A DNA stretch of 64,000 nucleotides from a phage: assembly GCA_036253495.1 (NCBI GenBank), contig GCA_036253495.1_4125.1; one strand, given 5' to 3'. The translations under genes were made by a program, and so were the position numbers. Each line of letters starts with the position of its first letter. Position 1 is the stretch's first letter. Shown here piece by piece: positions 22,115 to 42,526 of the stretch. Below the pieces are notes generated by a model. It was not told the origin of the DNA, made no database searches, and was given only the letters and a program-made list of their open reading frames with translations.

Positions 22115-22146
22115 ACTTACATCAACTACTGAATGAGAGTTACAAA

Positions 22147-24006: not shown

Positions 24007-24010
24007 TACA

Positions 24011-24127: not shown

Positions 24128-24172
24128 TGCAGTTGTCAAGAACTATTTTTCAAATACTTTTTATTAAAATAC

Positions 24173-24885: not shown

Positions 24886-24915
24886 TAGCCCACTATAAGC
24901 AGTGGGCTTTTTTGT
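24886..24915 (+). terminator. rho-independent terminator
   Basis: AGCCCACT-ataagc-AGTGGGCT + TTTTTG. Confidence 0.75.
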
Positions 24916-25112: not shown

Positions 25113-25595
25113 ATGGCTAACGTAAAATCATTCATCAAAGCACTGGTAGCAAATGAAACTAACGTAGCGGCAGAAATCCTGGCCGAACTGGATAGCGATA
25201 CCATGAAAGCAGTACGCAACAATTTTAACATTGCGTACAGCGAAGCGAAAGAACTGCAAGCTAATAAAGCGGCAGCACTTGAAGCTGAGAAGGCAGCACG
25301 CGAAGCTGAATTGCAGAAAACGATTGAAGATATTAACGCCGCCGTCGCTGGGCTTGATCTGGAAGTAGTTACCGAAATGGCACGTAAAGCCCTGGCAGCG
25401 AAATACGGGGAAGACAAGCCAGAAGTAAAAGCTAAAAAATGGATTCAAGAACGTGTGACGGTTGTACTGGATAATGGCGAGGAATACACTGTACCAGTAC
25501 GCGGTAACTGCATTGCGGTAGTACTGGATGCTATCAAAGAAAGCGGATTGACTCGCGAGGAATGGATCGAATCTCATCGCAAAGTTGAAGCATAA
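25113..25595 (+). CDS. H-NS-like protein candidate (coiled-coil N-terminus, H-NS-like C-terminal domain)
   Basis: Ala/Glu/Lys-rich N-terminal half; C-terminus LDNGEEYTVPVRGNCIAVVLDAIKESGLTREEWI resembles H-NS [33 protein letters not shown]; long 5' leader; terminator. Confidence 0.45.
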   Translation: MANVKSFIKALVANETNVAAEILAELDSDTMKAVRNNFNIAYSEAKELQANKAAALEAEKAAREAELQKTIEDINAAVAGLDLEVVTEMARKALAAKYGEDKPEVKAKKWIQERVTVVLDNGEEYTVPVRGNCIAVVLDAIKESGLTREEWIESHRKVEA

Positions 25596-25615: not shown

Positions 25616-25646
25616 TAGCCCACCTTAAACAGTGGGCTTTTTTTGT
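25616..25646 (+). terminator. rho-independent terminator
   Basis: AGCCCAC-cttaaac-AGTGGGCT + TTTTTTT. Confidence 0.75.
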
Positions 25647-29021: not shown

Positions 29022-29159
29022 ATGAATCCTAACGGTTTAATTTATAGTACTCCTAAAACGAAAGCAGATAAAGCGAAAGCACGTAAAGCGAAAGTAAAGG
29101 AGTACATCAAGCAAGGCATGACGCGAAAAGCAGCAGTACTAAAAGCTAAAAATAAATGA
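29022..29159 (+). CDS. small Lys-rich protein (45 aa)
   Basis: MNPNGLIYSTPKTKADKAKARKAKVKEY...; directly follows membrane peptide. Confidence 0.4.
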   Translation: MNPNGLIYSTPKTKADKAKARKAKVKEYIKQGMTRKAAVLKAKNK

Positions 29160-29164
29160 AAAAA

Positions 29165-29197
29165 GTGGTTGACTTCGGTCAGCCATTTTGCTATTAT
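29165..29197 (+). promoter_or_regulatory. composite terminator-hairpin/promoter element (copy 1, divergent)
   Basis: AAAAAGTGGTTGACTTCGGTCAGCCATTTTGCTATTAT: hairpin spans -35 TTGACT and spacer; -10 TATTAT. Confidence 0.5.
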
Positions 29198-29278
29198 ATA
29201 TTCATTGAGAGATAGCTCACTAGCCCACCGGGTGCGGAAGTGTAAATAAAATATATCAATCTAATAAGGAGTACTACA

Positions 29279-29461
29279 ATGTTTAAACCAATCGAACTAG
29301 CGGCATCACATATCATCGGTAAACCTGCCGTTATCATACGCCAGGAAGACGTAAACCTATGGATCATCTATGTAGACATGAAAGAGATTGAGCGTCACGA
29401 TGATTTCAAATCAGCGTCAATTGCGTATGATATGGCGTTATGTGAGTATCAAAGAGATTAA
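29279..29461 (+). CDS. hypothetical early protein
   Basis: 60 aa; SD AAGGAG; composite terminator/promoter element upstream. Confidence 0.6.
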   Translation: MFKPIELAASHIIGKPAVIIRQEDVNLWIIYVDMKEIERHDDFKSASIAYDMALCEYQRD

Positions 29462-29481
29462 AAGTATTTTGCAAAAAGTAC

Positions 29482-29509
29482 TTGCATTGTACTTAGAATC
29501 AAGTATAAT
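29482..29509 (+). promoter_or_regulatory. early promoter + 5' stem-loop
   Basis: TTGCAT-16-TATAAT; hairpin GGGGAAAC/GTTTCCCC. Confidence 0.65.
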
Positions 29510-29561
29510 GTTTTACATAGCAAGGGGAAACGGTTTCCCCTGGTAACTAAGGAAATGAATT

Positions 29562-30029
29562 ATGAATAGCATCGAATTCGTCGCAGCAGTACAAGAAAAC
29601 TTCCTGAAAGTATTCCCTAACGGTTTCTTTATCGCCCGACCTTTACCGCTGGGTGGCGACGTGGGGATCACTATGTCACTGACTCGCGAGCTTGCCGACT
29701 GCCCCCACAATATCCGCGATAACGACCGCATGATGATGACCTTTGCGATCCACGGTATGAAGTTCGGGGATAGCGACGAATACACAGACAAGCTGATCAT
29801 GGAACCGTACCGCAGCGTTATCAGTACTATTCCACGTAAACAGTACTACGCGATGGGACATGACAAAATCCCTACCCGTAAGACTACAAACACGCCTGAG
29901 AAGCTGTTAGCGACTCTTAACAAGTATATTCGGGCCGCAGGTAAACAGGTGTTAGATCTTAAAGCATTAAACGAGATTTACCAACAGGAAAACATCAAAG
30001 AGCAGTACTTAGAAATTAACGTAAAATAG
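29562..30029 (+). CDS. hypothetical early protein
   Basis: 155 aa; promoter TTGCAT/TATAAT + hairpin GGGGAAAC/GTTTCCCC upstream. Confidence 0.7.
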   Translation: MNSIEFVAAVQENFLKVFPNGFFIARPLPLGGDVGITMSLTRELADCPHNIRDNDRMMMTFAIHGMKFGDSDEYTDKLIMEPYRSVISTIPRKQYYAMGHDKIPTRKTTNTPEKLLATLNKYIRAAGKQVLDLKALNEIYQQENIKEQYLEINVK

Positions 30030-30032
30030 TAC

Positions 30033-30061
30033 TAGACAACACAACGGGGCTATTATATAAT
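30033..30061 (+). promoter_or_regulatory. promoter
   Basis: TAGACA-17-TATAAT within imperfect palindrome. Confidence 0.45.
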
Positions 30062-30093
30062 AGTCCCATCTTAAGCAAACAAGGAACTACAAA

Positions 30094-30432
30094 ATGATCT
30101 CAATCGCTCAATCTAACTTTGAAAACGAAATCATCGCCCAGGCACTGCGTTTAAATGATGGTCGGGCCGAAATTAATTACGGTTTCAATTCAGGCGGTTG
30201 TGAAAACTATCAGTACTTTGTAACGGCTGATGGCGGTGTCCTGGGAATCAATACAGTTATTGTAAACATTCAGAAAATTAATTTCAATGATCCAGAAGAT
30301 AGCCAGTTTTACATCACGGGCGTAGACGTGAACTATGAGGATGACTCACTAACTGATGATTGCACTGGTGAGAAGTTAGAAAGTGCATACGGTGAAGATG
30401 ATTATCAGTCCGGTCCAGAAGATTTCGAATAA
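30094..30432 (+). CDS. acidic hypothetical protein (candidate DNA-mimic)
   Basis: 112 aa; highly acidic C-terminal half (NDPEDSQFY...YEDDSLTDD...YGEDDYQSGPEDFE). Confidence 0.6.
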   Translation: MISIAQSNFENEIIAQALRLNDGRAEINYGFNSGGCENYQYFVTADGGVLGINTVIVNIQKINFNDPEDSQFYITGVDVNYEDDSLTDDCTGEKLESAYGEDDYQSGPEDFE

Positions 30433-30445
30433 TATAAAAAATAGT

Positions 30446-30473
30446 TTGACAATAGATTATAGTACTGTATAAT
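30446..30473 (+). promoter_or_regulatory. early promoter + 5' stem-loop
   Basis: TTGACA-16-TATAAT; hairpin GGGGAGAA/TTCTCCCC. Confidence 0.65.
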
Positions 30474-30524
30474 AAGTTACATCAAGGGGAGAATAGTTCT
30501 CCCCACAAACAGAGAGAAAACAAA

Positions 30525-30737
30525 ATGGCTAATATCCGCACTGTACTGAAAAATGCAAAACAAGTTTTATTTTCTGATCATGAAAATTTCAACAAGGATA
30601 TCACAGGCGTTCGGAATATCAAAGATGTAAAAAATGTTATGGGTATCTATTGCAATATGAAACGTGTTGGCACGTTCGGCGATAAAGTACTATACCAGGC
30701 AGGGGATTACAATTTTACACTGACTATCATTAACTAA
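30525..30737 (+). CDS. hypothetical early protein
   Basis: 70 aa; promoter + hairpin upstream. Confidence 0.65.
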   Translation: MANIRTVLKNAKQVLFSDHENFNKDITGVRNIKDVKNVMGIYCNMKRVGTFGDKVLYQAGDYNFTLTIIN

Positions 30738-30756
30738 AAATATTATCACAGTACTA

Positions 30757-30785
30757 TTGACAACGTTTGATAGTACTGACATAAT
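30757..30785 (+). promoter_or_regulatory. early promoter (duplicated cassette, copy 3)
   Basis: TTGACA-17-CATAAT. Confidence 0.6.
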
Positions 30786-30827
30786 AACTTTTATCAAGAC
30801 AACGCATATTAACTTAAGGAATTAAAA

Positions 30828-31007
30828 ATGGCTATTATCGCAAAAACTGAAATCGTTGGTCTGGATTCTATCATCATGACGTTTGAAGATCAAAAAGGGA
30901 TGTATGTAGTTTCCTATGGTGATTATGTTCGGGAGTATGAAACGGTAGACGAAGCCTTTGAAAGTTACATTCGCCAGGTGAATAAAGCATACGACGACTA
31001 CCGCTAA
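30828..31007 (+). CDS. small hypothetical protein (59 aa, not in ORF track), cassette paralog of 26644-26856
   Basis: MAIIAKTEIVGLDS...; same promoter/leader cassette as 26553-26643. Confidence 0.55.
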   Translation: MAIIAKTEIVGLDSIIMTFEDQKGMYVVSYGDYVREYETVDEAFESYIRQVNKAYDDYR

Positions 31008-31034
31008 AATATATTACCAGTACTATTAAAGATA

Positions 31035-31062
31035 TTGACATAGTTTGATAGTACTGTATAAT
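31035..31062 (+). promoter_or_regulatory. early promoter
   Basis: TTGACA-16-TATAAT. Confidence 0.6.
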
Positions 31063-31106
31063 AAGTTTTATCAACAGTAGTTAACTTAACCTAAGAGAGA
31101 AAGAAA

Positions 31107-31250
31107 ATGATCGCACTGGATTCATTCATCGAAGCAGTACTGGCAAAAACTGGCGAAGATCTGACCGCAGAACAATACGCAATGATCGAACAATGCCAGC
31201 AAGACGGTAAATCGGTGAAAGATACTGTTAAGATTATCCGCAAGATGTAA
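31107..31250 (+). CDS. small hypothetical protein (47 aa, not in ORF track)
   Basis: MIALDSFIEAVLAKTGEDLTAEQYAMIEQCQQDGK...; promoter upstream, terminator downstream. Confidence 0.5.
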   Translation: MIALDSFIEAVLAKTGEDLTAEQYAMIEQCQQDGKSVKDTVKIIRKM

Positions 31251-31255
31251 GATTA

Positions 31256-31288
31256 TAGCCCACTGGTTAACGCTGGTGGGCTTTTTAG
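31256..31288 (+). terminator. rho-independent terminator (contains Chi octamer)
   Basis: AGCCCAC-tggttaacgctg-GTGGGCT + TTTT; includes GCTGGTGG. Confidence 0.65.
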
Positions 31289-31362
31289 TATATACCTATC
31301 CGATAGTACTACAAAATAGATTAGCTCGTTAGAATGCGTTTGAGAGCGTTTAAATAAGTACT

Positions 31363-31390
31363 AAAAAGTATTGACAGTACTGATAGATAG
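31363..31390 (+). promoter_or_regulatory. early promoter + 5' stem-loop
   Basis: TTGACA-16-TATAAT; hairpin GGGGAA-acatc-TTCCCC. Confidence 0.65.
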
Positions 31391-31445
31391 TGTATAATGT
31401 TTTACATGAAGGGGAAACATCTTCCCCTACTAAGAGGAAAACAAA

Positions 31446-31634
31446 ATGGAACAATTATCAAGTATTTTAGTACAAGATGAATACGGCAATCCAGGAAGTG
31501 CTATCATTGTTCGGGGTAATAAGGCAACGTTTGTTATTGCTGGTGGACCTGTACAGCGTAGCATTAAAAACAATGCCGTTACTATTAATAATGTACGCTA
31601 TCGTTTAGATAAAGAATTAATTCATAAACTTTAA
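31446..31634 (+). CDS. hypothetical early protein
   Basis: 62 aa; promoter + hairpin upstream. Confidence 0.65.
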   Translation: MEQLSSILVQDEYGNPGSAIIVRGNKATFVIAGGPVQRSIKNNAVTINNVRYRLDKELIHKL

Positions 31635-31642
31635 AAAAGTAC

Positions 31643-31670
31643 TGGACAATAGATTATAGTACTGTATAAT
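31643..31670 (+). promoter_or_regulatory. early promoter + 5' stem-loop
   Basis: TGGACA-16-TATAAT; hairpin GGGGAGAA/TTCTCCCC. Confidence 0.6.
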
Positions 31671-31720
31671 AAGTTACATGAAGGGGAGAAATGATTCTCC
31701 CCAGTACTGAGGAAAGAAAA

Positions 31721-31933
31721 ATGCAAGGTCAACTAATCGTTCGTAAATGGTCTGATACTAACGCTAAACCGTGGGATGTACAATACATCGCCCCCAATGG
31801 TGAATCCAGATATCAACCAGGTGTAACGCATAGTACTGAGCAATATGCCGCCGCACACCGTGAACGCCTGTTACAATCCATGCAGCAAGGCTTCGGTGAA
31901 AAATTCATCCAAGATCATTGGCTGAAAGATTAA
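31721..31933 (+). CDS. hypothetical early protein
   Basis: 70 aa from MQGQLIVRKW; promoter + hairpin; track extension rejected. Confidence 0.65.
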   Translation: MQGQLIVRKWSDTNAKPWDVQYIAPNGESRYQPGVTHSTEQYAAAHRERLLQSMQQGFGEKFIQDHWLKD

Positions 31934-31941
31934 AAAAGTAT

Positions 31942-31969
31942 TTGACAAAGTATCACAGTACTGTATAAT
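31942..31969 (+). promoter_or_regulatory. early promoter + 5' stem-loop
   Basis: TTGACA-16-TATAAT; hairpin GGGGAGAA/TTTCTCCCC. Confidence 0.65.
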
Positions 31970-32020
31970 TAATTACATCAAGGGGAGAAGTTTTCTCCCC
32001 ACCATATAAGGGTAACAGTT

Positions 32021-32110
32021 ATGCACATGAATCCGTTCATAGTAGTAATTGCAATCATTATGGCAGTACAGGCCGTATTAGTTTACTTAAGCAAAGCAGG
32101 AGTTATCTAA
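32021..32110 (+). CDS. small hydrophobic membrane peptide (29 aa)
   Basis: MHMNPFIVVIAIIMAVQAVLVYLSKAGVI; promoter + hairpin upstream. Confidence 0.4.
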   Translation: MHMNPFIVVIAIIMAVQAVLVYLSKAGVI

Positions 32111-32111
32111 A

Positions 32112-32285
32112 ATGATCCATGTAGAATTATCAGTACTGAAAGATTTGTTTTATCGGATGGGTACTACTGGCGAATATCCGAAGGGTGATACCGCAAAACT
32201 TTTTGTATCACTCGACTTATGGCAACGCGAACAATTAGTAACGTCCTGGCGTAAAGGTAAAGCCGACAAGGGGGCCGTAGCATGA
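32112..32285 (+). CDS. small hypothetical protein (57 aa, not in ORF track)
   Basis: MIHVELSVLKDLFYRMGTTGEYPKGD...; preferred over antisense track ORF 32150-32332. Confidence 0.45.
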   Translation: MIHVELSVLKDLFYRMGTTGEYPKGDTAKLFVSLDLWQREQLVTSWRKGKADKGAVA

Positions 32286-32431
32286 AAGAATACATTTTCG
32301 AAGTTACGTTTTTGGGTAAAGGTATGCATCAACTGATACGGTCCAGCGGATACAGTGTTAACCAGGCGTGGAATAACTTAAAACAAATGTACCCGAACGC
32401 TATCACATATCGCAACCCTCGCGAGGCATAA
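32282..32431 (+). CDS. small hypothetical protein (49 aa, not in ORF track)
   Basis: MKEYIFEVTFLGKGMHQLIRSSGYS...; ATGA overlap with upstream ORF. Confidence 0.45.
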   Translation: MKEYIFEVTFLGKGMHQLIRSSGYSVNQAWNNLKQMYPNAITYRNPREA

Positions 32432-32446
32432 AATAAATTGAAAAAA

Positions 32447-32479
32447 GGGATTGACTCCGGTCAGTCCCTTTGCTATTAT
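32447..32479 (+). promoter_or_regulatory. composite terminator-hairpin/promoter element (copy 2)
   Basis: AAAAAAGGGATTGACTCCGGTCAGTCCCTTTGCTATTAT. Confidence 0.55.
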
Positions 32480-32578
32480 ATACGCATAGAAACAAATTAG
32501 CCCACCGGGTGCATAAATGTATCTATTGTTTGCTGGTGGAGGTATTATCTAGTACTGAAAACTATTTTTAAAAAGTAC

Positions 32579-32606
32579 TTGCATTGTACTTAGAATCAAG
32601 TATAAT
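32579..32606 (+). promoter_or_regulatory. early promoter (upstream of structured leader)
   Basis: TTGCAT-16-TATAAT GTTTTACATCAG. Confidence 0.6.
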
Positions 32607-32612
32607 GTTTTA

Positions 32613-32694
32613 CATCAGGACGGGGAATGAAACAAGTAACCCCGTTAAGTAGTCCAGGAGTAAGACATAAGAAAACCTCCCCTGATAAAATAGT
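32613..32694 (+). other. conserved structured 5' leader RNA between tandem promoters (copy 2)
   Basis: ACGGGGAAtgaaacaagtaaCCCCGT then CCAGGAG...CCTCCCCTG. Confidence 0.5.
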
Positions 32695-32722
32695 TTGACA
32701 ATAGAAAGTAAACGAGTATAAT
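32695..32722 (+). promoter_or_regulatory. second (proximal) promoter
   Basis: TTGACA-16-TATAAT before ATG 32755. Confidence 0.55.
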
Positions 32723-32754
32723 ACTTACATCAACCACTGATAAGGAAACATAAA

Positions 32755-33030
32755 ATGCGGATTCTACTGACAGCTAACGAAATCGAGCAAGTACTGACTA
32801 CTAACCTGGAACAATGGAAACGTGATGCAGATATCCAGGCGGTACAATGGCTTAACGATAAGTTAACGCCAGATGACTTAAGCAAGATTGTTGACCCTCA
32901 ATTCTATGAAGATATTCACGACACGGCTTTAAGCGTCGAGGATGTACTTGATAAGCACTACATTGATATTGATTTGCAGGTTTACGGTCGTAAAAACTTT
33001 ATCACTATTCACGACATTTACAATACTTAA
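32755..33030 (+). CDS. hypothetical early protein
   Basis: 91 aa; tandem promoters and structured leader upstream. Confidence 0.65.
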   Translation: MRILLTANEIEQVLTTNLEQWKRDADIQAVQWLNDKLTPDDLSKIVDPQFYEDIHDTALSVEDVLDKHYIDIDLQVYGRKNFITIHDIYNT

Positions 33031-33033
33031 GTA

Positions 33034-33061
33034 TTGACAAAGTATCTTAGTACTGTATAAT
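33034..33061 (+). promoter_or_regulatory. early promoter + 5' stem-loop
   Basis: TTGACA-16-TATAAT; hairpin GAGGGGAA/TTCCCCTC. Confidence 0.65.
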
Positions 33062-33115
33062 AGTTTACATCAAGAGGGGAATGGTTCCCCTCCTAACAAA
33101 GAGAGAGAAATAAAA

Positions 33116-33298
33116 ATGGCTAAGTGCACTATCTGTAAGAAAGAAATCGTATTAGTTCCAAGTGCCCGTGAACGTGCCGCTCGGTTCGGTGGCAAAGCGT
33201 CAGACTATACAAAAATGTTTACTGCCCATGCAGATTGCCAGGTAGCAAAACGTTCACAAGAAAGCGTAGAATTAATGCGTAAACTTTCCAAAAAATAA
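33116..33298 (+). CDS. small zinc-ribbon-like protein
   Basis: 60 aa; CTIC...HADC motif; promoter + hairpin upstream. Confidence 0.6.
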   Translation: MAKCTICKKEIVLVPSARERAARFGGKASDYTKMFTAHADCQVAKRSQESVELMRKLSKK

Positions 33299-33301
33299 GT
33301 A

Positions 33302-33329
33302 TTGACAAAGTATCTTAGTACTGTATAAT
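33302..33329 (+). promoter_or_regulatory. early promoter + 5' stem-loop (duplicate of 33034)
   Basis: TTGACA-16-TATAAT; hairpin GAGGGGAA/TTCCCCTC. Confidence 0.65.
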
Positions 33330-33385
33330 AGTTTACATCAAGTGAGGGGAATGGTTCCCCTCCTAACTAAAAGAGAGAAATAAAA

Positions 33386-33709
33386 ATGGCTATGATCCTC
33401 ACCCAGAAAGTAGAACTGAAAATTGTAACATCCTTTGACATTAAAGTTAATCGGTGGACTGATTCACACGGCAATACTTACCACTCTTGCTACGTGTCTG
33501 CGTTAATTGGCGACCGCTGGGAGGATTTAGGACATGAAACCTTTACTTACGGTTACGGCACACAAGGCGAATACACGGGCTTGGAGATCATTAAAGAAAC
33601 GGTTATAGGTTTCAACCCGAAAGAAAAAGTTATTCATCAAATAGAAAAAGAGATCAACAAAGAAATAACAGTTCGCTACAACGATGTAAAACGTAAGAAA
33701 GACATGTAA
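33386..33709 (+). CDS. hypothetical early protein (paralog of 26948-27271)
   Basis: 107 aa; upstream promoter/hairpin nearly identical to that of 33116. Confidence 0.7.
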   Translation: MAMILTQKVELKIVTSFDIKVNRWTDSHGNTYHSCYVSALIGDRWEDLGHETFTYGYGTQGEYTGLEIIKETVIGFNPKEKVIHQIEKEINKEITVRYNDVKRKKDM

Positions 33710-33731
33710 TAGAATCCATTTAAAGTACTAT

Positions 33732-33760
33732 TTGACATTGCCCAGATAGTACTTTATAAT
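33732..33760 (+). promoter_or_regulatory. early promoter
   Basis: TTGACA-17-TATAAT. Confidence 0.6.
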
Positions 33761-33804
33761 AGACTCTAGCTTGTAGTACTAACTTAACTAATAGGATGTA
33801 TACC

Positions 33805-34200
33805 ATGATTACTAAATTCTACGCTACCCGTGAAGCTGCCCGTATTGTTGCACGCGAGGAAGGAGCAGCATTTAAAGACATGGGCACGACCGCACCGAAA
33901 GGCCAACGCTGGGCCGTACAGTTCAAAGAAATCTCTGATATTGTGAATTCACCTGAACCAGTACTAACAGCAGCAGAACAGAAGAAAGCTGATGAACTGT
34001 CAGCAGTACTTAACGCTCAAGATGAATTTATCGCGGGTTCTGATATCAAAGTACAGGTAAATGCTAATGCATGGACTCACGCGGATCACCTGGCTAACCT
34101 GAAGCGTCCAAGTGAACTGGTTCGCAACCAGAAAGAGATCCGACACGACCGTAAGGGTAATCGTGTAACAGTATACAGTAAACGCCGCCAGGTTATCTAA
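33805..34200 (+). CDS. hypothetical early protein (paralog of 21133-21399)
   Basis: 131 aa from MITKFYATREAAR; SD AGGA; terminator downstream. Confidence 0.65.
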   Translation: MITKFYATREAARIVAREEGAAFKDMGTTAPKGQRWAVQFKEISDIVNSPEPVLTAAEQKKADELSAVLNAQDEFIAGSDIKVQVNANAWTHADHLANLKRPSELVRNQKEIRHDRKGNRVTVYSKRRQVI

Positions 34201-34221
34201 TAACTTGCAGTACTAACAACA

Positions 34222-34250
34222 CGGCGGGATCAGTTCCCGCCTTTTTTATA
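34222..34250 (+). terminator. rho-independent terminator
   Basis: GGCGGGA-tcagt-TCCCGCC + TTTTTT. Confidence 0.75.
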
Positions 34251-34262
34251 GGATAAACTAAA

Positions 34263-34517
34263 ATGATTAAGGTACAACTATCTAAAGATAATATCTTGCG
34301 GGTACACTATAAAGCCCCTCAGAGAATCATCACAAAGGCCGTACAGCTTGCTAATGAGTTTATTAATGGTAATCTATTGCCCAGGAAGTTAAGCAACGGC
34401 AAACTGCGTGTAATCGATGTAGACACTAACAACAGGATAGTAATCGAGAATACCGGAAAGATAAACCTCTATGAACACCAACAATATAATAAGAAAATAA
34501 AACTAATATCACGTTGA
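34263..34517 (+). CDS. hypothetical early protein
   Basis: 84 aa; SD AGGA. Confidence 0.6.
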   Translation: MIKVQLSKDNILRVHYKAPQRIITKAVQLANEFINGNLLPRKLSNGKLRVIDVDTNNRIVIENTGKINLYEHQQYNKKIKLISR

Positions 34518-34542
34518 CAGTACTCAATTGTTTTAGTACTAT
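34514..34542 (+). promoter_or_regulatory. early promoter
   Basis: TTGACA-17-TACTAT. Confidence 0.55.
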
Positions 34543-34570
34543 GTATCTATACCAACACGGGAGAAACAAA

Positions 34571-34789
34571 ATGAAATTATCTAAAATCGAAAAGAAAACT
34601 ATTGATGAAGCAGTTAAGCACGGTTATACCTTTCGTAATGATTCACATTTTACCAATTTTCAACAAGGGTATCGTACTATTAAAAAACTAATTGACAAAG
34701 GTTTATTAGTTAAAGTAGATAACGGTAACGGCGTGGAGTATCAGCCAACACAAGACGCATTATCTTTAAAGAAATATGCAATTATCTAA
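34571..34789 (+). CDS. hypothetical early protein
   Basis: 72 aa from MKLSKIEKK; promoter TTGACA/TACTAT; SD GGGAGA; track extension rejected. Confidence 0.6.
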   Translation: MKLSKIEKKTIDEAVKHGYTFRNDSHFTNFQQGYRTIKKLIDKGLLVKVDNGNGVEYQPTQDALSLKKYAII

Positions 34790-34818
34790 TTGACAGTACT
34801 CAAATGTTTTAGTACTAT
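34790..34818 (+). promoter_or_regulatory. early promoter (duplicate of 34514)
   Basis: TTGACA-17-TACTAT. Confidence 0.55.
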
Positions 34819-34854
34819 ATGTACATACCAACACGGAATAACTGGAGAAACAAA

Positions 34855-35082
34855 ATGATTAATATCTTAGAACGCATCAAAGAAACTACTACGCTGGTGG
34901 ATCTACTCAATGTACTGACTTTTAAAGTAACTCGGTTTAGTACTCCTGAATTTATCAACCTCATTGATAGTAAAGGTGAATACCGCATCACTATTGAAAA
35001 TGGTCGTGCTAATGTATTCAGTACTAAATCAGGTAAAACCGCAATTCATTCTGTAATTGCAAATAAAACTGTTGCAATCTAA
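34855..35082 (+). CDS. hypothetical early protein
   Basis: 75 aa from MINILERIK; duplicated promoter as upstream gene. Confidence 0.6.
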   Translation: MINILERIKETTTLVDLLNVLTFKVTRFSTPEFINLIDSKGEYRITIENGRANVFSTKSGKTAIHSVIANKTVAI

Positions 35083-35100
35083 TTAGTACTAACATATAAT
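35072..35100 (+). promoter_or_regulatory. promoter + 5' stem-loop (kinase-like gene)
   Basis: TTGCAA-17-TATAAT; hairpin GCAGGGA/TCCCTGC. Confidence 0.55.
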
Positions 35101-35151
35101 AGTCACATCAAGGCAGGGAATACCTCCCTGCTATCTTAAAGAGTAAATGCA

Positions 35152-35736
35152 ATGCGTAATTATACTAAATTCATCCGGGCACTGGCAGAAATGGAAACTA
35201 ACAAAGAGATCCTTACAGCTTGTCGGTTGGCTGGTCTGGAGATCATCGGGGCCGGATCATCCCGTATCGTATTCGCTTTAAATGATCGGTTAGTGATTAA
35301 GGTCGCTAATTGTGACGCTGGCGTAGAACAAAATGAAACAGAATGTAAGGTATGGAATTTTTTAGATTATGACCGCCCTCACCTTAAACAGTACTTTGCT
35401 AAGGTGCATATGCATTTAAGCGATCCTGATAATATGTTTATTGTTATGGATCGTTTGAGTACTGCAAGCAAAGGCAGTGTAAAGCACGTTAACGCTTGCA
35501 ATGAATTAAAGTACAATGTCAAACGTAACACTATTGAACGCCAACACCATTTCGCTGATGCACTACAACACGTTGATGATACCTTATCAACACTAACGAT
35601 AAGAGATATCAGAAAGCAGAACATAGGCCAAGATCGCAATGGCCTGATTAAAGTACTTGATTACGGTTTAACCCGCAATATCTGGAATCAGTACTATAAA
35701 CAACGCGACGTAAAAGCCGTAACTATAACACGATAA
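35152..35736 (+). CDS. protein kinase-like protein (candidate small Ser/Thr or atypical kinase)
   Basis: 194 aa; Gly-loop IIGAGSSRIVF, Lys motif LVIKV, catalytic-loop-like IRDIRKQNIG, DFG-like VLDYG. Confidence 0.5.
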   Translation: MRNYTKFIRALAEMETNKEILTACRLAGLEIIGAGSSRIVFALNDRLVIKVANCDAGVEQNETECKVWNFLDYDRPHLKQYFAKVHMHLSDPDNMFIVMDRLSTASKGSVKHVNACNELKYNVKRNTIERQHHFADALQHVDDTLSTLTIRDIRKQNIGQDRNGLIKVLDYGLTRNIWNQYYKQRDVKAVTITR

Positions 35737-35750
35737 AAAAGATTAAAAAA

Positions 35751-35783
35751 GGGATTGACTCCAGTCAGTCCCTTTGCTATTAT
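35751..35783 (+). promoter_or_regulatory. composite terminator-hairpin/promoter element (copy 3)
   Basis: AAAAAAGGGATTGACTCCAGTCAGTCCCTTTGCTATTAT. Confidence 0.55.
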
Positions 35784-35878
35784 ATAGTCATTGAGAGATA
35801 ACTCACTGACCCATAGGGTGCATAAGTGTATCTATAATATAAGTATTGTCAGTACTGAAAACTATTTTAAAAAAGTAC

Positions 35879-35906
35879 TTGCATTGTACTTAGAATCAAG
35901 TATAAT
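35879..35906 (+). promoter_or_regulatory. early promoter + 5' stem-loop
   Basis: TTGCAT-16-TATAAT; hairpin GGGGGAAAC/GTTCTCCC. Confidence 0.65.
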
Positions 35907-35958
35907 GTTTTATATCGAGAGGGGGAAACGGTTCTCCCTGGCAATAAGGAATAAAATC

Positions 35959-36180
35959 ATGACTACAATGACTTGCATTTACGCTTCCAATCTTCTGAAT
36001 GATGCGGCCTTTAATGTTGATTCAGAATATCAATGTTATCGGGATGAAAATAAAAAAGTTTTTGTAGTTGATAATAATGGTTTCCATATTGAATTGCAAT
36101 CCGGCTTCACTGGCGTTGATGGTAAATCAGTATGGGGCGTACAGGATGATAAAGGTACATATCATTTTAAACGTAATTAA
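35959..36180 (+). CDS. hypothetical early protein
   Basis: 73 aa from MTTMTCIY; promoter + hairpin; track extension from 35791 rejected. Confidence 0.6.
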   Translation: MTTMTCIYASNLLNDAAFNVDSEYQCYRDENKKVFVVDNNGFHIELQSGFTGVDGKSVWGVQDDKGTYHFKRN

Positions 36181-36183
36181 GTA

Positions 36184-36211
36184 TTGACAAAGTATCTTAG
36201 TACTGTATAAT
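36184..36211 (+). promoter_or_regulatory. early promoter + 5' stem-loop
   Basis: TTGACA-16-TATAAT; hairpin GGGGAGAA/TTCTCCCC. Confidence 0.65.
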
Positions 36212-36263
36212 AGTTTACATCAAGGGGAGAATAGTTCTCCCCGATACTAAAAGGAATAAAATC

Positions 36264-36671
36264 ATGACTACTACTAATCAAGCTCGGTCCATCGCCAACG
36301 ATAAAAATCATGCTGCAATGGTCGCTGGTTACATTGAAGCTATGCAATTCAGTACTGTACACAATGAGAACGGCGAATACCTGGAAGATTATGAATTATC
36401 AGAGCAAGCCCATCAAGCGGCAGTGATTGCATGTTCACGTTTCCTTGCTGTACATGGTGAAGATATGGAAACAGTACAAAAACACCATAATCCTGATTAT
36501 ACTTATAATCATGCAGGTCATGATCTCTTTCTTACTCGCGAAGGTCACGGTACTGGCTTTTGGGATCGTGATATCGGTCACTATGACGATGTATTCACTA
36601 AGTACTGCGAAGAAATCAACGTTTGCGATCCCTATGTAGGCGATGATAATCTAATCTATATGGGCGAATAA
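36264..36671 (+). CDS. hypothetical protein with His/Asp-rich motif
   Basis: 135 aa; HAGHDLFLTREGHGTGFWDRDIGHYDD suggests metal-binding/hydrolase-like site (speculative). Confidence 0.65.
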   Translation: MTTTNQARSIANDKNHAAMVAGYIEAMQFSTVHNENGEYLEDYELSEQAHQAAVIACSRFLAVHGEDMETVQKHHNPDYTYNHAGHDLFLTREGHGTGFWDRDIGHYDDVFTKYCEEINVCDPYVGDDNLIYMGE

Positions 36672-36677
36672 AAGTAC

Positions 36678-36705
36678 TTGACAAAGTATATCAGTACTGT
36701 ATAAT
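36678..36705 (+). promoter_or_regulatory. early promoter + 5' stem-loop
   Basis: TTGACA-16-TATAAT; hairpin GGGGAGAA/TTCTCCCC. Confidence 0.65.
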
Positions 36706-36758
36706 AGTTTACATCAAGGGGAGAATAGTTCTCCCCACCAATAAAAGGAAACAACATT

Positions 36759-37031
36759 ATGTCAAGCTACTCCGCTACTATGATCATTAAAGATATGAAC
36801 GGTAATCCTACTTCTGCTGGTGGATCATTTGGAAACATTAACTTAGATGGTCGGTTATCAATGGAATCAGCCATCAATGCAGCGAAAGAAGTTTTTAAGA
36901 ATGAATGTACTGTAAGCAAGCTAGATTATATGGGCTTCGCTATCGAGAAAACTAAACGTTTTGTGGACTACAAAAATCCACTAATGATTGATACTAACCT
37001 GAAAGCTAACGAAGTGGAATACTTATTATGA
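36759..37031 (+). CDS. hypothetical early protein
   Basis: 90 aa; promoter + hairpin upstream. Confidence 0.65.
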   Translation: MSSYSATMIIKDMNGNPTSAGGSFGNINLDGRLSMESAINAAKEVFKNECTVSKLDYMGFAIEKTKRFVDYKNPLMIDTNLKANEVEYLL

Positions 37032-37219
37032 CAGTTGAAGAAGTTAAAAAAGTACTGGCAGTACTACGCTATCATAATCATTGCAAGGTGAAGAATGATC
37101 CTGATTATGTTGATTCATCCCTGGAGGAAGACACCTTAAACGCGATAAGCCATATGCAAACATTAGCAAAGCGTATGACCGAAAAGAATAGGCCGGACTA
37201 TATCGGAAATAAAATTTAA
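37028..37219 (+). CDS. hypothetical early protein
   Basis: 63 aa; ATGA overlap with upstream ORF. Confidence 0.55.
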   Translation: MTVEEVKKVLAVLRYHNHCKVKNDPDYVDSSLEEDTLNAISHMQTLAKRMTEKNRPDYIGNKI

Positions 37220-37226
37220 AAAGTAC

Positions 37227-37254
37227 TTGCATTGTAGTTAGATTAAAGTATAAT
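37227..37254 (+). promoter_or_regulatory. early promoter + 5' stem-loop
   Basis: TTGCAT-16-TATAAT; hairpin GGGGGAAA/TTTCCCCT. Confidence 0.65.
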
Positions 37255-37306
37255 GTTTTATATCGAGAGGGGGAAATGGTTTCCCCTCAAGTCCAGGAGA
37301 TACACC

Positions 37307-37570
37307 ATGAACACTATCGAAATCACTATTAATGCTCACGTATACGACAACGTAGTACTGCAAACTACTATGACCGCTAACGATACCAGTACTTTGCGGA
37401 ATACTGTTATAAGTGCTGTATGTGCCGCTATCGGTGATGTATCCCTGGAAAATGCAGAACACATCAACAACGGTTTCACTATGTGCAAACGTGATAACGC
37501 AAAACATATCATCGTAGAAGGTTACGGCGGTGTAGAATATAACCTTTATATGAAAAAAGTACTTGCATAG
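37307..37570 (+). CDS. hypothetical early protein
   Basis: 87 aa from MNTIEITINAH; 3' end overlaps next promoter. Confidence 0.6.
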   Translation: MNTIEITINAHVYDNVVLQTTMTANDTSTLRNTVISAVCAAIGDVSLENAEHINNGFTMCKRDNAKHIIVEGYGGVEYNLYMKKVLA

Positions 37571-37590
37571 TAACTAAAACAAAGTATAAT
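37563..37590 (+). promoter_or_regulatory. early promoter + 5' stem-loop
   Basis: TTGCAT-16-TATAAT; hairpin GGGGGAG-atatc-CTCCCCC. Confidence 0.65.
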
Positions 37591-37638
37591 GTTTTGCATA
37601 GGGGGAGATATCCTCCCCCACTAATAAGGAGTACTACG

Positions 37639-37863
37639 ATGGCTAATCATGATGAACTGATTCGGGAAGTAGCTAACCTGGCGGCAGAAAAGAAATCATT
37701 TGATTCTATCTATAACACCGCTCACCGTGATTCAGTACTGGCATGTAATCAGGATCAAAAAGATGAACTGATCGCAACCTATCATGAAGCATGGAAGTAT
37801 TACCGTCAATGGGAGAAAGAAGAAAAAGCATCAACCATAAGAGGATTAAATAATCTAGTATAA
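37639..37863 (+). CDS. hypothetical early protein
   Basis: 74 aa from MANHDELIREV; SD AAGGAG. Confidence 0.6.
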   Translation: MANHDELIREVANLAAEKKSFDSIYNTAHRDSVLACNQDQKDELIATYHEAWKYYRQWEKEEKASTIRGLNNLV

Positions 37864-37869
37864 CAATAA

Positions 37870-37900
37870 AAGGGGATGATAATATCCCCTTAATAATTTC
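37870..37900 (+). terminator. possible terminator (weak U-tract)
   Basis: GGGGAT-gataat-ATCCCC + TTAATAATTT. Confidence 0.4.
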
Positions 37901-37915
37901 TATAATAGGTTAACA

Positions 37916-38182
37916 ATGAAAAAGAAAACAACATATCGCTATAATAAAAATTATCAATCCGTTGTATTAGATCACTCTATGCTCCCGCTCGTTGTCCCTG
38001 CCGTTGGTGTAGTCTATCAATCCATATACTGGTCAAGGAAACAACAAAAGTACTTAAAAGGCCCACTAGCACGTTATGAGGGTAACGGTGTATGGTCCGA
38101 TCCGTTACATCCAATCACTACGCGTTATATTGAATATTTTCCTTATTGTGACTACATTGAAATACATCCTAAATTTAATTGA
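37916..38182 (+). CDS. hypothetical early protein (paralog of 38263-38520)
   Basis: 88 aa; shares NG.W.DP..PI and YIE motifs with next gene. Confidence 0.6.
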   Translation: MKKKTTYRYNKNYQSVVLDHSMLPLVVPAVGVVYQSIYWSRKQQKYLKGPLARYEGNGVWSDPLHPITTRYIEYFPYCDYIEIHPKFN

Positions 38183-38187
38183 TAGTA

Positions 38188-38215
38188 TTGACAGTACTAA
38201 CTGATAGTGTATAAT
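38188..38215 (+). promoter_or_regulatory. early promoter + 5' stem-loop
   Basis: TTGACA-16-TATAAT; hairpin GGGGGAATACTCCCCC. Confidence 0.65.
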
Positions 38216-38262
38216 GTTTTGCATAGGGGGAATACTCCCCCAATATTAAAAGGGGAATCATC

Positions 38263-38520
38263 ATGGAACAATTCACACAATATCGGGTAAATCCTCAAGC
38301 TATGGCCTACGTAGAAGACCATAAAACGTTACCAGTACTGCAACCAGTTAAAGGCCGTATCTATCGTGGCCTTGCATGGAATACGGCCCAGGATGGATAT
38401 AAAACCGTTGCCGTGGGGATGTATTGCGGGAATGGTGAATGGTTTGATCCTAACAATCCGATTGCACTTGACAGTACTGAAAAAATGAAATGGGCCGACT
38501 ATATCGAGGATATCTCATAA
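38263..38520 (+). CDS. hypothetical early protein (paralog of 37916-38182)
   Basis: 85 aa; promoter + hairpin GGGGGAATACTCCCCC upstream. Confidence 0.65.
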   Translation: MEQFTQYRVNPQAMAYVEDHKTLPVLQPVKGRIYRGLAWNTAQDGYKTVAVGMYCGNGEWFDPNNPIALDSTEKMKWADYIEDIS

Positions 38521-38525
38521 AACTA

Positions 38526-38554
38526 TTTGACAGTACTATCATATAGTGTATAAT
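38526..38554 (+). promoter_or_regulatory. early promoter + 5' stem-loop
   Basis: TTGACA-17-TATAAT; hairpin GCGGGGGAA/TTCTCCCGC. Confidence 0.65.
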
Positions 38555-38609
38555 GTTTTACATAGAGCGGGGGAATAGTTCTCCCGCCAATAGTTTGGAG
38601 TAAAACATT

Positions 38610-38810
38610 ATGTCAATCGCTATCGCCCTGGTTGAAGTACTGAAAGAAGCTAAAGCTAACCTGATCGACGTAAAGATCCAGGAACTACAATCCGGCTTAA
38701 TCGGCTGTACTTGTACCGCTGGTGGGGCGACAGATTATCGTGAATTCGAATCACTCGAATCTATGGTTCGGTATCTTACAATGATCGTGGAAGATTGGAA
38801 GATCATCTAA
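38610..38810 (+). CDS. hypothetical early protein
   Basis: 66 aa; promoter + hairpin upstream. Confidence 0.6.
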   Translation: MSIAIALVEVLKEAKANLIDVKIQELQSGLIGCTCTAGGATDYREFESLESMVRYLTMIVEDWKII

Positions 38811-38828
38811 CAAAAAAGAATAAAAAAA

Positions 38829-38861
38829 GGGATTGACTCCGGTCAGTCCCTTTGCTATTAT
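38829..38861 (+). promoter_or_regulatory. composite terminator-hairpin/promoter element (copy 4)
   Basis: AAAAAAAGGGATTGACTCCGGTCAGTCCCTTTGCTATTAT. Confidence 0.55.
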
Positions 38862-38974
38862 ATACGCATAGACAAAAACTAGCCCACAGGGTGCATAGGT
38901 GTATCTAAAATATATAGTTAATAACGGTGAGTAACTATCTGCTGGTGGAGTGAAAACTATTAATAAAAAACTAT

Positions 38975-39002
38975 TGACAAAGTATAGCAGTACTGCAATA
39001 AT
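38975..39002 (+). promoter_or_regulatory. promoter
   Basis: TTGACA-16-AATAAT. Confidence 0.5.
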
Positions 39003-39055
39003 GTATCTCGTAGGGCGGCAATGGTGCGACGGTCCACAAAGTTAGGAGATTCAAA

Positions 39056-40397: not shown

Positions 40398-40595
40398 ATG
40401 CGTATTTTAACACAAGAAGAGCATCACGAAAGACTTATCAATAACATGGCTATGATAATGTATAAGTCTCATAAACGTGGTAATGCCTATAAACGTGAAT
40501 TAGTTATGGAACTATTCTTAGGAACTAACTTACAAAATGAATATGTTAAACTATATGTAAAAGAGTTATGTTTAGAGATAAATGGTAAACTATGA
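40398..40595 (+). CDS. small protein, family B (LGTNYQ-motif)
   Basis: first array member; promoter TTGACT/TATTAT and SD AAGGGAG upstream; FLGTNLQNEYV. Confidence 0.65.
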   Translation: MRILTQEEHHERLINNMAMIMYKSHKRGNAYKRELVMELFLGTNLQNEYVKLYVKELCLEINGKL

Positions 40596-40792
40596 AAATG
40601 CGTACATTAACTCAAGATGAATATCATCATATACTACGTAAAAACACGGCAAGAATTTACCAAAGCAATGTGCACTTAGAAAGAGTTGAGTTGTACCTGT
40701 TGATTACGATGGGAACAAACTATCAGGAAGTGTGGATAACTCACTATTTGGAATCTTTGAAAGCTGACATACGAGCTAGGAGAAAACTATGA
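40592..40792 (+). CDS. small protein, family B
   Basis: MKMRTLTQDEY...MGTNYQEVWI; ATGA overlap. Confidence 0.65.
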   Translation: MKMRTLTQDEYHHILRKNTARIYQSNVHLERVELYLLITMGTNYQEVWITHYLESLKADIRARRKL

Positions 40793-40989
40793 AAATGCGT
40801 ACATTAACCGAAAAAGAATATCAAGCTCTACTACGTAAAAACATGGTAAGGATTTACCAAAGCGATGTGCACTTAGAAAGAGTTGAGTTGTACCTTTTGA
40901 TTACAATGGGAACCAACTATCAGGAAGCATTGATATCGAAATATTTGGAATCTTTGAAAGCTGACATACGAGCGAGGTGCAAACATTGA
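40789..40989 (+). CDS. small protein, family B
   Basis: MKMRTLTEKEY...MGTNYQEALI; near-duplicate of previous. Confidence 0.65.
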   Translation: MKMRTLTEKEYQALLRKNMVRIYQSDVHLERVELYLLITMGTNYQEALISKYLESLKADIRARCKH

Positions 40990-42109: not shown

Positions 42110-42311
42110 TGGGTATGAATATTACAGGCTGTTGCGAACTATACAAGCAAAAGTTTCTAGTATTTCTTTAAACAAATCTATTGCACAAGTGGACAAATGT
42201 GTTATAATAACTGAAATGAAGCTATCTATCTTCATTGGGACAAACTATCAAAGCATCTACACTGACGCATGGTTAGCAAGTCTACGTAACAAGGTGATAT
42301 CCAGAGAATGA
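42096..42311 (+). CDS. small protein, family B
   Basis: FIGTNYQSIYT. Confidence 0.6.
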   Translation: MKILSGYEYYRLLRTIQAKVSSISLNKSIAQVDKCVIITEMKLSIFIGTNYQSIYTDAWLASLRNKVISRE

Positions 42312-42526
42312 AAAAATTACAAGGTTTTGAATATATTAAGCTTCTGCAAACCTGTGAAATCCAAAGAAGAAAGATTCAAAAGGCTAAAAGAATTACCGCA
42401 GAACGAAAGTTTACACTGATAACTGAAGTCTATGTAGAGGCACTCTTAGGCACAAACTATCAACAAACGTATATAGACCTATGGATTGATGCACTCCAGA
42501 AAGAGGTTAAAAGTAAATGCAAATGA
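42308..42526 (+). CDS. small protein, family B
   Basis: LLGTNYQQTYI; ATGA overlap. Confidence 0.6.
   Translation: MKKLQGFEYIKLLQTCEIQRRKIQKAKRITAERKFTLITEVYVEALLGTNYQQTYIDLWIDALQKEVKSKCK

Follow-up and report, generated by a model that had tools for sequence, protein, structure and literature searches.

Small motifs that combine a terminator with a sigma-70 promoter have been described from T4-like phages as promoter-early stem-loops (PeSLs), which are repeated between orphan genes and mediate the shuffling of gene cassettes (PMC2839356, PMC4122927). The 64,000-nt stretch of phage DNA analysed here (GenBank assembly GCA_036253495.1, contig GCA_036253495.1_4125.1; hereafter the window) carries four copies of a composite hairpin-promoter element, each with a GC-rich box on its 3' side. 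An original prediction had read them as regulated terminator/promoter switches with an adjacent palindromic operator. The composite belongs to a known class of elements, here met in an additional phage group and in an unusually compact form. The box most likely works in RNA, either as a cis-acting leader element or as a short non-coding RNA, with a conserved factor to recognise it.

By its matches, the window is DNA of an Asteriusvirus (Rak2-like) jumbo phage. The 10-kb stretch around the elements matches the Asteriusvirus (PBECO4/121Q-like, Rak2-like) jumbo coliphages, with 95% identity to A4 and about 90%, in many separate pieces, to PBECO4, 121Q, slurp01 and UE-S1. Start and end of the annotated direct terminal repeat (DTR) of vB_Ec-M-J (1-21525 of its record) map to about 18,606 and about 40,300 (about 21.7 kb), and the window therefore carries a collapsed copy of this repeat:

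18606 to 40300, no strand: direct terminal repeat, collapsed to one copy in the present assembly, as mapped from the DTR of vB_Ec-M-J.

For fEgEco12, a DTR of about 21 kb was confirmed experimentally by PhageTerm and restriction mapping (PMC13070987). All composites, boxes and leaders of the window fall within the DTR, an early-gene region with about 59 small plus-strand open reading frames (ORFs), mostly orphan early genes, whose homology with relatives is a mosaic.

The four plus-strand composites were located where the original prediction had placed them. The pattern GGGATTGACTCCGGTCAGTCCCTTTGCTATTAT occurs at 32447-32479 (no mismatch), 35751-35783 (one mismatch) and 38829-38861 (no mismatch), and the looser pattern TTGACNNNNGTCANNNNNTTTGCTATTAT adds 29169-29197, so that four matches stand against 0.04 expected from shuffled sequences. 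With their flanks, the copies are:

29159 to 29197, plus strand: composite copy 1 (divergent), with A-tract, hairpin GTGGTTGAC-TTCG-GTCAGCCAT, T-rich tail and -35 TTGACT/TGn/-10 TATTAT; -15.9 kcal/mol, z -4.7; begins 3 nt past the stop codon of ORF 29022-29159.
32441 to 32479, plus strand: composite copy 2, a terminator-like hairpin overlapping a sigma-70 promoter; -19.5 kcal/mol, z -6.5; 3' of ORF 32282-32431.
35745 to 35783, plus strand: composite copy 3 (loop UCCA); -17.6 kcal/mol; 3' of ORF 35152-35736; the hairpin of its UE-S1 orthologue is annotated as a terminator.
38823 to 38861, plus strand: composite copy 4, identical in sequence to copy 2; -19.5 kcal/mol; 3' of ORF 38610-38810.

In all four, 3-15 nt separate the composite from the stop codon of the preceding ORF. 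As RNA, the composite forms a stem of 9 bp, closed by a loop of the UNCG type (UUCG, UCCG or UCCA) and lengthened to 12 bp by the A and U tracts on either side; the four hairpins range from -15.9 to -19.5 kcal/mol (z -4.7 to -6.6). As DNA, it consists of an A6-tract, TTGACT, 17 bp, TGn and TATTAT, scoring 10/12 with the TG in the consensus scan, and the 5' arm of the hairpin doubles as the -35 hexamer TTGACT of this near-consensus sigma-70 promoter. A neutral consensus scan over 20 kb, with copies 1-3 inside and copy 4 just beyond its range, called the copies at 29169, 32451 and 35755 promoter-like and terminator-like alike; it counts the composite as a terminator only with the A:U-extended stem. 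The U-tract of the window composites reads UUUGCUAUUAU, with 3-4 consecutive U (four in copy 1), and relatives have U4-5.

The design is shared by the whole Rak2-like group. A 95-nt query containing copy 2 matched 65 phage records by BLAST, from phages of Escherichia, Klebsiella (RaK2, K64-1), Salmonella, Pectobacterium (CBB), Cronobacter (GAP32), Yersinia, Serratia and Erwinia, at four places per genome or at eight where the DTR is written twice, and in several records the matches are annotated as lying within a terminal repeat. The genome-wide distribution in relatives was taken from such place counts and from retrieved loci; a pattern scan of IMG/VR added 19 loci. In other genera the design AAAAA-AGGG-TTGAC-NNNN-GTCAG-CCCT-TTTTGCTATTAT is the common early promoter, found 4-6 times per ~10 kb, and it usually runs straight into a ribosome-binding site and ATG, with no box. 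Among 33 distinct copies from Rak2-like phages, 99% of the stem cells are paired, as against 19-55% in slid registers. Compensatory changes occur in four of the nine stem pairs, namely the four outer ones (GGGA/TCCC, GTGG/CCAT, AGGG/CCCT, GTAC/GTAC, AAGG/CCTT and GGAG/CTCC). In the 3' arm, the positions that face the invariant TTGAC vary only to G-U-compatible bases, a tolerance that fits selection on the sense RNA and hence a terminator for upstream transcription. Each half is annotated somewhere in public records: UE-S1 and G17 have a terminator there, fHe-Yen9-03 has -35/-10 signals. The proposal that a terminator-like hairpin lends its 5' arm to a promoter as the -35 is thus borne out by hairpin stability, cross-genus covariation, the position behind the stop codon and these annotations.

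The composites stand among a main family of early promoters with at least 24 members between 18983 and 39454, which read AAAAGTACTTGCA-N17-GTATAATGTTTTACAT or, written more broadly, AAAAGTACTTGCA/TTGACA-N16-17-GTATAAT-GTTTTACAT; behind the promoter come a 5' hairpin GGGGAGAA..TTCTCCCC and then a ribosome-binding site. Two gene cassettes (33116-33298 and 36264-36671) have duplicated promoters of this class on either side; in UE-S1 the cassettes are absent and a single promoter is present. Homology with UE-S1 breaks at 29244, just past box 1, the sole such junction for the four composites. The blocks of about 3.2 kb between composites have regulatory DNA in common and not genes. An origin of the four composites by triplication of a ~3.2-kb segment was rejected, as a tblastx comparison of the blocks recovered the intergenic elements and, beyond these, a single paralogous gene pair (33386, 26948). 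At 21947-22147 and 32557-32755, main-class promoters carry a leader of about 140 nt, starting CATCAGGACGGGGAA.GAAA.AAGTAAC, in place of the short hairpin and ribosome-binding site, and this may be another structured leader.

The GC-rich box 3' of each composite is likewise real. CCCNNNGGGTGC occurs nine times, against 0.04 expected, next to a variant with a 4-nt loop at 19909, and a profile search with filters off recovered exactly ten copies in the window, none of them outside 19.7-38.9 kb. One of these, at 19967-19978 on the minus strand, had been missed earlier. The core CACC-N-GGTG that had been described as conserved is present in only four of the ten copies (copies 3 and 4 read CCCATAGGGTG and CCCACAGGGTG) and is broken in many relatives; the conserved core is the asymmetric CCCAYNGGGTGC. 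Copies away from the composites do exist as reported, but they do not stand alone, each lying 21-28 nt 3' of a sigma-70-type -35/-10 of its own on its own strand. All ten window copies have this distance to their own -10 and the sense orientation. The same holds for 40 of 41 copies analysed across at least eight phages (UE-S1, 121Q, vB_Ec-M-J, RaK2, CBB, GAP32 and two metagenomic phages); the exception is a RaK2 copy without a convincing promoter, and one further regular-expression match within a coding region was left out as chance. The spacing would place the box at roughly +15 to +35 of the transcript, with start sites predicted from the -10. The units of the window, with a first hairpin in the leader denoted SL1, are:

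29204 to 29250, plus strand: leader 1, with SL1 (UGAG/CUCA), box CCCACCGGGTGC at 29224-29235 and GTG-TAA; runs on to a ribosome-binding site and ATG at 29279.
32486 to 32530, plus strand: leader 2 (short class, no SL1), with box at 32501-32512, hairpin-B region and -10-like hexamer.
35790 to 35840, plus strand: leader 3, with SL1 (UGAG/CUCA) and box CCCATAGGGTGC at 35810-35821.
38868 to 38913, plus strand: leader 4 (short class), with box CCCACAGGGTGC at 38883-38894.
19733 to 19834, minus strand: promoter (-10 TATAAT), SL1 (AGUC/GACU), box at 19762-19751 and CGCCCAAAATT; directed towards the left genome end.
19853 to 19940, plus strand: promoter TTGCCA-18-TACTAT, SL1 (AGUACU/AGUACU) and variant box ACCCGCTAGGGTGC; hairpin B at 19915-19934, then a T-run.
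19949 to 20034, minus strand: promoter TTGACT-16-TATAAT, SL1 (CGC/GCG) and box CCCAGGGGGTGC at 19978-19967; convergent with the 19853-19940 unit.
21748 to 21831, plus strand: promoter TTGACT-17-CATAAT, SL1 (AUUG/CAAU) and box at 21802-21813.
21841 to 21920, minus strand: promoter TTGACA-17-TATAAT and box at 21870-21859; convergent with the 21748-21831 unit.
24007 to 24139, minus strand: promoter TTGACA-17-CATAAT, SL1 (AGAC/GUCU), box at 24082-24071 and hairpin GGGGATC/GATCCCC (z -3.0); no ORF.
32571 to 32637, plus strand: second, main-class early promoter (P2) 3' of leader 2.

Hairpin and box are separable modules, as many composites lack a box and six window units combine a box with an ordinary promoter and no composite hairpin. 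Behind composites 2-4 a second promoter follows after 60-90 nt and then the gene, and copy 1 leads directly to its gene. The tandem layout of the composite promoter (P1) and P2 is repeated at 35871-35937 and, with a different promoter, after copy 4 (about 38975-39005). The order P1(hairpin)-SL1-box-P2-ribosome-binding site-gene is present and annotated in the Yersinia phage fHe-Yen9-03, which stands at about 23% average nucleotide identity in the comparison table of the fEgEco12 paper (PMC13070987).

The leader appears to consist of roughly 45 nt, made up of an optional SL1, an invariant CCCAYNGGGUGC and a downstream UGUAUCU-like segment. SL1 is a hairpin of 3-6 bp with a purine-rich loop, found at the same position in all 24 long leaders (25-28 nt from -10 to box) and missing from the short ones (21-22 nt). 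By our count its stems have 13 different sequences, among them UGAG/CUCA, AGUC/GACU, CGC/GCG, AUUG/CAAU, AGAC/GUCU, UGGC/GCCG, AGCA/UGCU, ACCG/CGGU and CCA/UGG, and its hairpin score of 5.0 compares with 3.0 for shuffles (best of 200 shuffles, 3.9). In the box itself, hairpin A (R-CCC-AYN-GGG-U) is 98.6% paired with an A-U or G-U flanking pair, and CCC/GGG has changed to CCU/AGG in two phages, which is one compensated pair in two sequences. Hairpin B joins GGGUGCR to the conserved downstream UGUAUCU and is 88.9% paired, against 27-57% in slid registers; every change in it is pairing-compatible and one-sided. The two hairpins are mutually exclusive, since GGGU pairs either back with CCC (A) or forward with UGUAUCU (B). 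In the 19909 unit and its vB_Ec-M-J orthologue a T-run follows hairpin B, and the window copy was flagged as terminator-like. RNAalifold returned only the 4-bp hairpin A for the aligned leaders, with no stable global fold, and single-sequence z-scores were unremarkable. Rfam 15 has no family matching the leader or box; its covariance models gave no window match at gathering thresholds and no relevant one at E <= 5 over 18.6-40.5 kb. A pairing of the box with the downstream Chi-containing GCTGGTGG forms in copy 2 alone and was rejected as not general.

Operator and switch, as originally proposed, are not supported by these comparisons. The box has no conserved dyad symmetry, its core is asymmetric, and it always lies in sense orientation on the transcribed side, 21-28 nt past the -10. 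The covarying hairpin and the G-U-preserving substitutions of the leader would make sense only in RNA and also speak against an operator. A regulated switch made of hairpin-promoter and box finds no support either; the two are separable, the hairpin-promoter of related phages usually having no box behind it.

Anatomy, conservation, covariation and promoter linkage are matters of observation. The explanation that we favour for them, and that we regard as probable as a whole, takes the four composites as early-gene terminator/promoter cassettes in the long terminal repeat of a Rak2-like jumbo phage, combined with a leader box that acts as RNA. The composite itself is very probably a terminator/promoter: an intrinsic-terminator hairpin just past the upstream stop codon would, as RNA, end or attenuate incoming transcription, and as duplex DNA its 5' arm would provide the -35 of a strong host sigma-70 promoter, so that transcription would stop and restart within 40 bp. 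Such cassettes, which may also mark gene-shuffling junctions, would explain the mosaic structure of the region. That the box acts at the RNA level is favoured on balance. It would be a separate and optional transcribed module, placed on a subset of early promoters in either genome orientation. A conserved factor would recognise it, be it a cis-acting leader element or a short non-coding RNA. It may then set the fate of the transcript, through stability or processing, early termination, or ribosome loading at the Shine-Dalgarno (SD)-like GGGUG-N5-RUG. More tentatively, and with clearly less confidence, the SL1-CCCAYNGGGUGC-UGUAUCU leader could be an undescribed RNA element specific to the Rak2-like terminal-repeat early region. 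It would be a two-hairpin toggle read by a conserved phage or host factor, and it would govern how far immediate-early transcripts are read through, how stable they are or how they are loaded with ribosomes. Alternatively, it would be released as short RNAs in abundance, among them convergent pairs of full complementarity close to the genome end, with an action on the host from the onset of infection.

Several points weigh against this explanation. The U-tract is interrupted (UUUGCUAUUAU), and termination may therefore be only partial. The box region is thermodynamically ordinary in four of the five leaders folded (z -1.7 to +1.4). Because the box core is invariant, most of its pairs cannot show covariation, and because the changes in hairpin B are one-sided, the shuffle control is uninformative for that hairpin. 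This strong invariance, together with a -10-like hexamer fixed 12 nt past GGGTGC (T32 A35 T30 A27 A20 T28 among 41 copies), would also fit a signal at the DNA level. The copies are moreover related by descent, so that counts overstate the number of independent observations. Termination itself, the transcription start sites and any function of the box are read here from sequence features.

Among the alternatives, the one that survives best, although we consider it unlikely, is that abundant non-coding RNAs of about 55-100 nt are encoded by the box units. Such RNAs, made from strong early promoters, would act in trans as decoys or antisense RNAs against a host or phage factor, and the copies behind composites would read into the next gene by chance. 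Four of the ten window copies lie on the minus strand within a block of plus-strand genes and have no ORF behind them. The units at 19853-19940 and 24139-24007 have promoter, box and terminator-like hairpin, the former possibly giving an RNA of about 55 nt and the latter an antisense or non-coding RNA of about 90 nt. The convergent pairs 19909/19978 and 21802/21870, with boxes 57-59 nt apart, have counterparts in UE-S1 and CBB. A precedent exists in the Pseudomonas jumbo phage PA5oct, a distant relative of the Rak2-like clade, in which RNA-seq revealed two highly expressed, ORF-less transcripts from the DTR, ncRNA001 and ncRNA002 (PMC7318152). Most box copies, however, have no terminator past the box and run into a ribosome-binding site or second promoter, and such RNAs have no known target. 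The PA5oct RNAs are longer (236 and 451 nt) and contain neither the box nor CCCAYNGGGTGC; homology between them and the leader was looked for as a candidate and none was found, in sequence or motif.

Slightly less likely is a signal in DNA. At about +15 to +35, the box could serve a phage regulator as operator or roadblock; or it could form the 5' half of a promoter that depends on an activator or a phage sigma factor, with CCCAYN 17 bp 5' of the -10-like TATAAT. Ten of twelve core positions are essentially invariant across genera despite weak folding, the -10-like hexamer has its fixed distance, and phages of the CBB type have genes for an additional sigma factor and for a transcriptional regulator (PMC5259590). 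Against this, the 5' flank R is A or G about equally, which together with CACC/GGTG in four of ten copies leaves no conserved dyad, and orientation to the promoter is fixed in 40 of 41 copies. The supposed spacer between box and hexamer is itself conserved, varying only in pairing-compatible ways, and the adjoining SL1 covaries as RNA. Nor was a nearby regulator, DNA-binding domain or RNA-binding protein found by Pfam among the 40 of the ~59 DTR ORFs scanned.

The box might also be a decoy translation-initiation region or mini-ORF, composed of the SD-like GGGUG, 5 nt, a start codon and UAU-CUA-stop or an immediate stop; we regard this as improbable. Ribosomes loaded near the 5' end would protect the RNA against RNase or Rho in a STAB-SD-like manner, or a minigene similar to lambda bar would be formed, both STAB-SD and lambda bar offering parallels to the box. 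ATG, GTG or TTG stands exactly 5 nt past GGGTG in 24 of 41 copies, and for the window, UE-S1 and 121Q in 14 of 15 sense-oriented as against 2 of 6 antisense copies (Fisher p = 0.011), and many copies have ORFs of 1-3 codons (MYL-stop or start-stop). Yet the remaining 17 lack a canonical start codon while the downstream nucleotides are unchanged (ATCCGTCTAT, TTACGCCC), the tiny ORFs vary in length from 1 to more than 20 codons, and the GGGUG is sequestered in hairpins A and B alike.

A processive antitermination signal, by which polymerase past the box, alone or together with a phage factor, would read through hairpin terminators and switch from immediate-early to delayed-early transcription, is very unlikely. 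Lambda nut and HK022 put are promoter-proximal antitermination RNAs of this type, and the box resembles them as a conserved, transcribed element with a small hairpin just 3' of early promoters, in a region with several terminator-like hairpins; in this phage it also stands behind every composite. Unlike them, it shows no boxA-like partner by eye and no match in Rfam. Its hairpin of 3-4 bp with a 3-nt loop differs from the boxB type with its 5-nt loop, and scanning 40 DTR ORFs revealed no homologue of N, Q or Nun. Behind minus-strand and convergent copies there is nothing to antiterminate, and many composite promoters of relatives have no box.

Equally poor is the case for repeats that are promoters only and owe their conservation to spread among repeated cassettes by recombination or gene conversion, as selfish or homogenised DNA. 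In its favour, cassette indels lie between duplicated promoters, a breakpoint falls right after box 1 and the blocks share regulatory DNA only. Against it, genera with intergenic DNA only ~75% identical to the query have retained box core and layout, and compensatory stem changes indicate selection on structure. A CsrA site, a MotA box, the T7 class II pause signal (ATCTGTT), a DnaA box and a CRISPR-repeat mimic were weighed and dropped for poor fit.

The original prediction had also noted a Chi-containing TGCTGGTGGAG behind two copies, and it was found after copies 2 and 4, at 32531 and 38940. The Chi sites proper are:

32532 to 32539, plus strand: Chi (GCTGGTGG) 3' of leader 2, exact match.
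38941 to 38948, plus strand: Chi 3' of leader 4, exact match.

They are part of a general enrichment of the repeat. The window has ten exact Chi sites against 0.48 expected (about 20-fold), nine on the plus strand (1215, 25726, 31272, 31539, 32532, 34893, 36816, 38718 and 38941), eight of these inside the DTR, and one on the minus strand (25664); UE-S1 and 121Q have kept the sites as well. Under the textbook rule for orientation, RecBCD that enters a repeat copy at its right end would meet plus-strand Chi in the active direction. One site lies within the 3' arm of the terminator 31257-31282. This terminator and those at 24887-24908 and 25617-25638 have the form CTAGCCCAC-loop-GTGGGCTTTTT, and the 5' arm CTAGCCCAC in common with the box start CTAGCCCACCGGGTGC suggests a common origin.

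Among the 40 DTR ORFs scanned with Pfam, 33 had no match at E <= 0.01 and seven had one. Three passed the cut-off that Pfam itself sets (DUF7249, DUF1033 and a ParE-like domain); a protein kinase domain, Tox-PL-2 and HVO_A0114 were matched below threshold. The ParE-like toxin domain lies in the early ORF 34263-34514 (E 6e-11), a weak sub-threshold protein-kinase match in the 194-aa ORF 35152-35733, just 5' of composite 3, and a weak papain-fold toxin match in ORF 25113-25592. No tRNA or tmRNA was found in the window.

The left-terminal ~1.7 kb of the repeat (18606-20300) contains no convincing gene. Confined to it are five copies of CGCCCAAAAT(T/C), the first 15 nt from the terminus, and an iteron-like array of six CC(A/G)TC(T/C)A(G/T) units lies on the minus strand at 19467-19563; both could be packaging, replication or end-binding sites. 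A link between this array and the TCTAT downstream of the box was discarded, as a single box copy matches. At 19590-19640, beside further G4/C4 hairpins, AGTTCCCC-N8-GGGGAT presumably resembles the flanks of the E. coli type I-E CRISPR repeat. Over the whole window there are 271 copies of the palindrome AGTACT (about 22 expected), most densely at 14-40 kb, and 59 of CAGTACTG. The palindrome forms part of promoter spacers (CAGTACTGTATAAT), of the DNA just 5' of the -35 (AAAAAGTACTTGCA) and of terminator stems, and could be a binding or modification motif. Paralogous gene arrays lie at 5820-14498 (minus strand), 17021-17669, 40587-40980 and 42208-44889. One array has a period of ~1250 bp on the minus strand with conserved ribosome-binding-site and terminator ends; the others consist of very small ORFs with periods of ~190-215 bp, and there is a 197-bp tandem duplication in addition.

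Control of the dozens of orphan early genes in the ~21-kb terminal repeat of Rak2-like phages is essentially unstudied, and a literature search of limited reach returned no description of the box or of composites in these phages. The box is compact, occurs across genera and, in this phage, ten times per repeat copy, has no Rfam family, and offers a handle for studying immediate-early control; a new riboregulator or small-RNA family, if such it is, would be of wider interest. In genome annotation, the sites should be marked as terminator, promoter and leader motif and not as operators.

Ordinary terminator-promoter junctions of E. coli and phages, and the 5' stem-loops that stabilise mRNAs, show the same general build. 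A hairpin with a U-rich tail at the gene end is followed at once by a promoter, and a stem-loop stands at the 5' end of the transcript, here SL1 or, in the main promoter class, the GGGGAGAA...UUCUCCCC hairpin. They differ from the present elements, in which the -35 hexamer is shared exactly with the stem, in a form kept across genera and unusually compact, and in which the box has no counterpart. Long terminal repeats of the T5 type carry pre-early genes, and the DTR of the window is similar as a long direct repeat full of small early genes with strong host-type promoters, yet the two have no sequence relationship. We know of no two-step DNA transfer or injection-stop signal in Rak2-like phages.

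The closest likeness is to the PeSLs. Both are small composite motifs of a terminator and a sigma-70-like early promoter with an AT-rich upstream part, and the composites have, structurally, a stable stem-loop adjoining or overlapping the promoter. Both recur among the orphan early genes of hyperplastic regions. PeSLs flank cassette indels among close relatives; in the window this is clear for the main-class promoters, and the four composites contribute the one junction at 29244. The PeSLs are further characterised by mini-circles from recombination between copies and by promoter and terminator activity in reporters (inverse PCR and lacZ fusions, PMC2839356). In contrast to the PeSLs, the 5' arm of the stem is here itself the -35 hexamer, the loop is of the UNCG type, and a subset carries an extra leader box that is not found in the descriptions of the PeSL papers; the host genomes are Rak2-like jumbo phages, with the cassettes inside a 21-kb terminal repeat. 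By analogy, the composites match the terminator/promoter cassettes of T4-like phages, and PeSL logic in Rak2-like regulatory DNA would extend the concept beyond that group.

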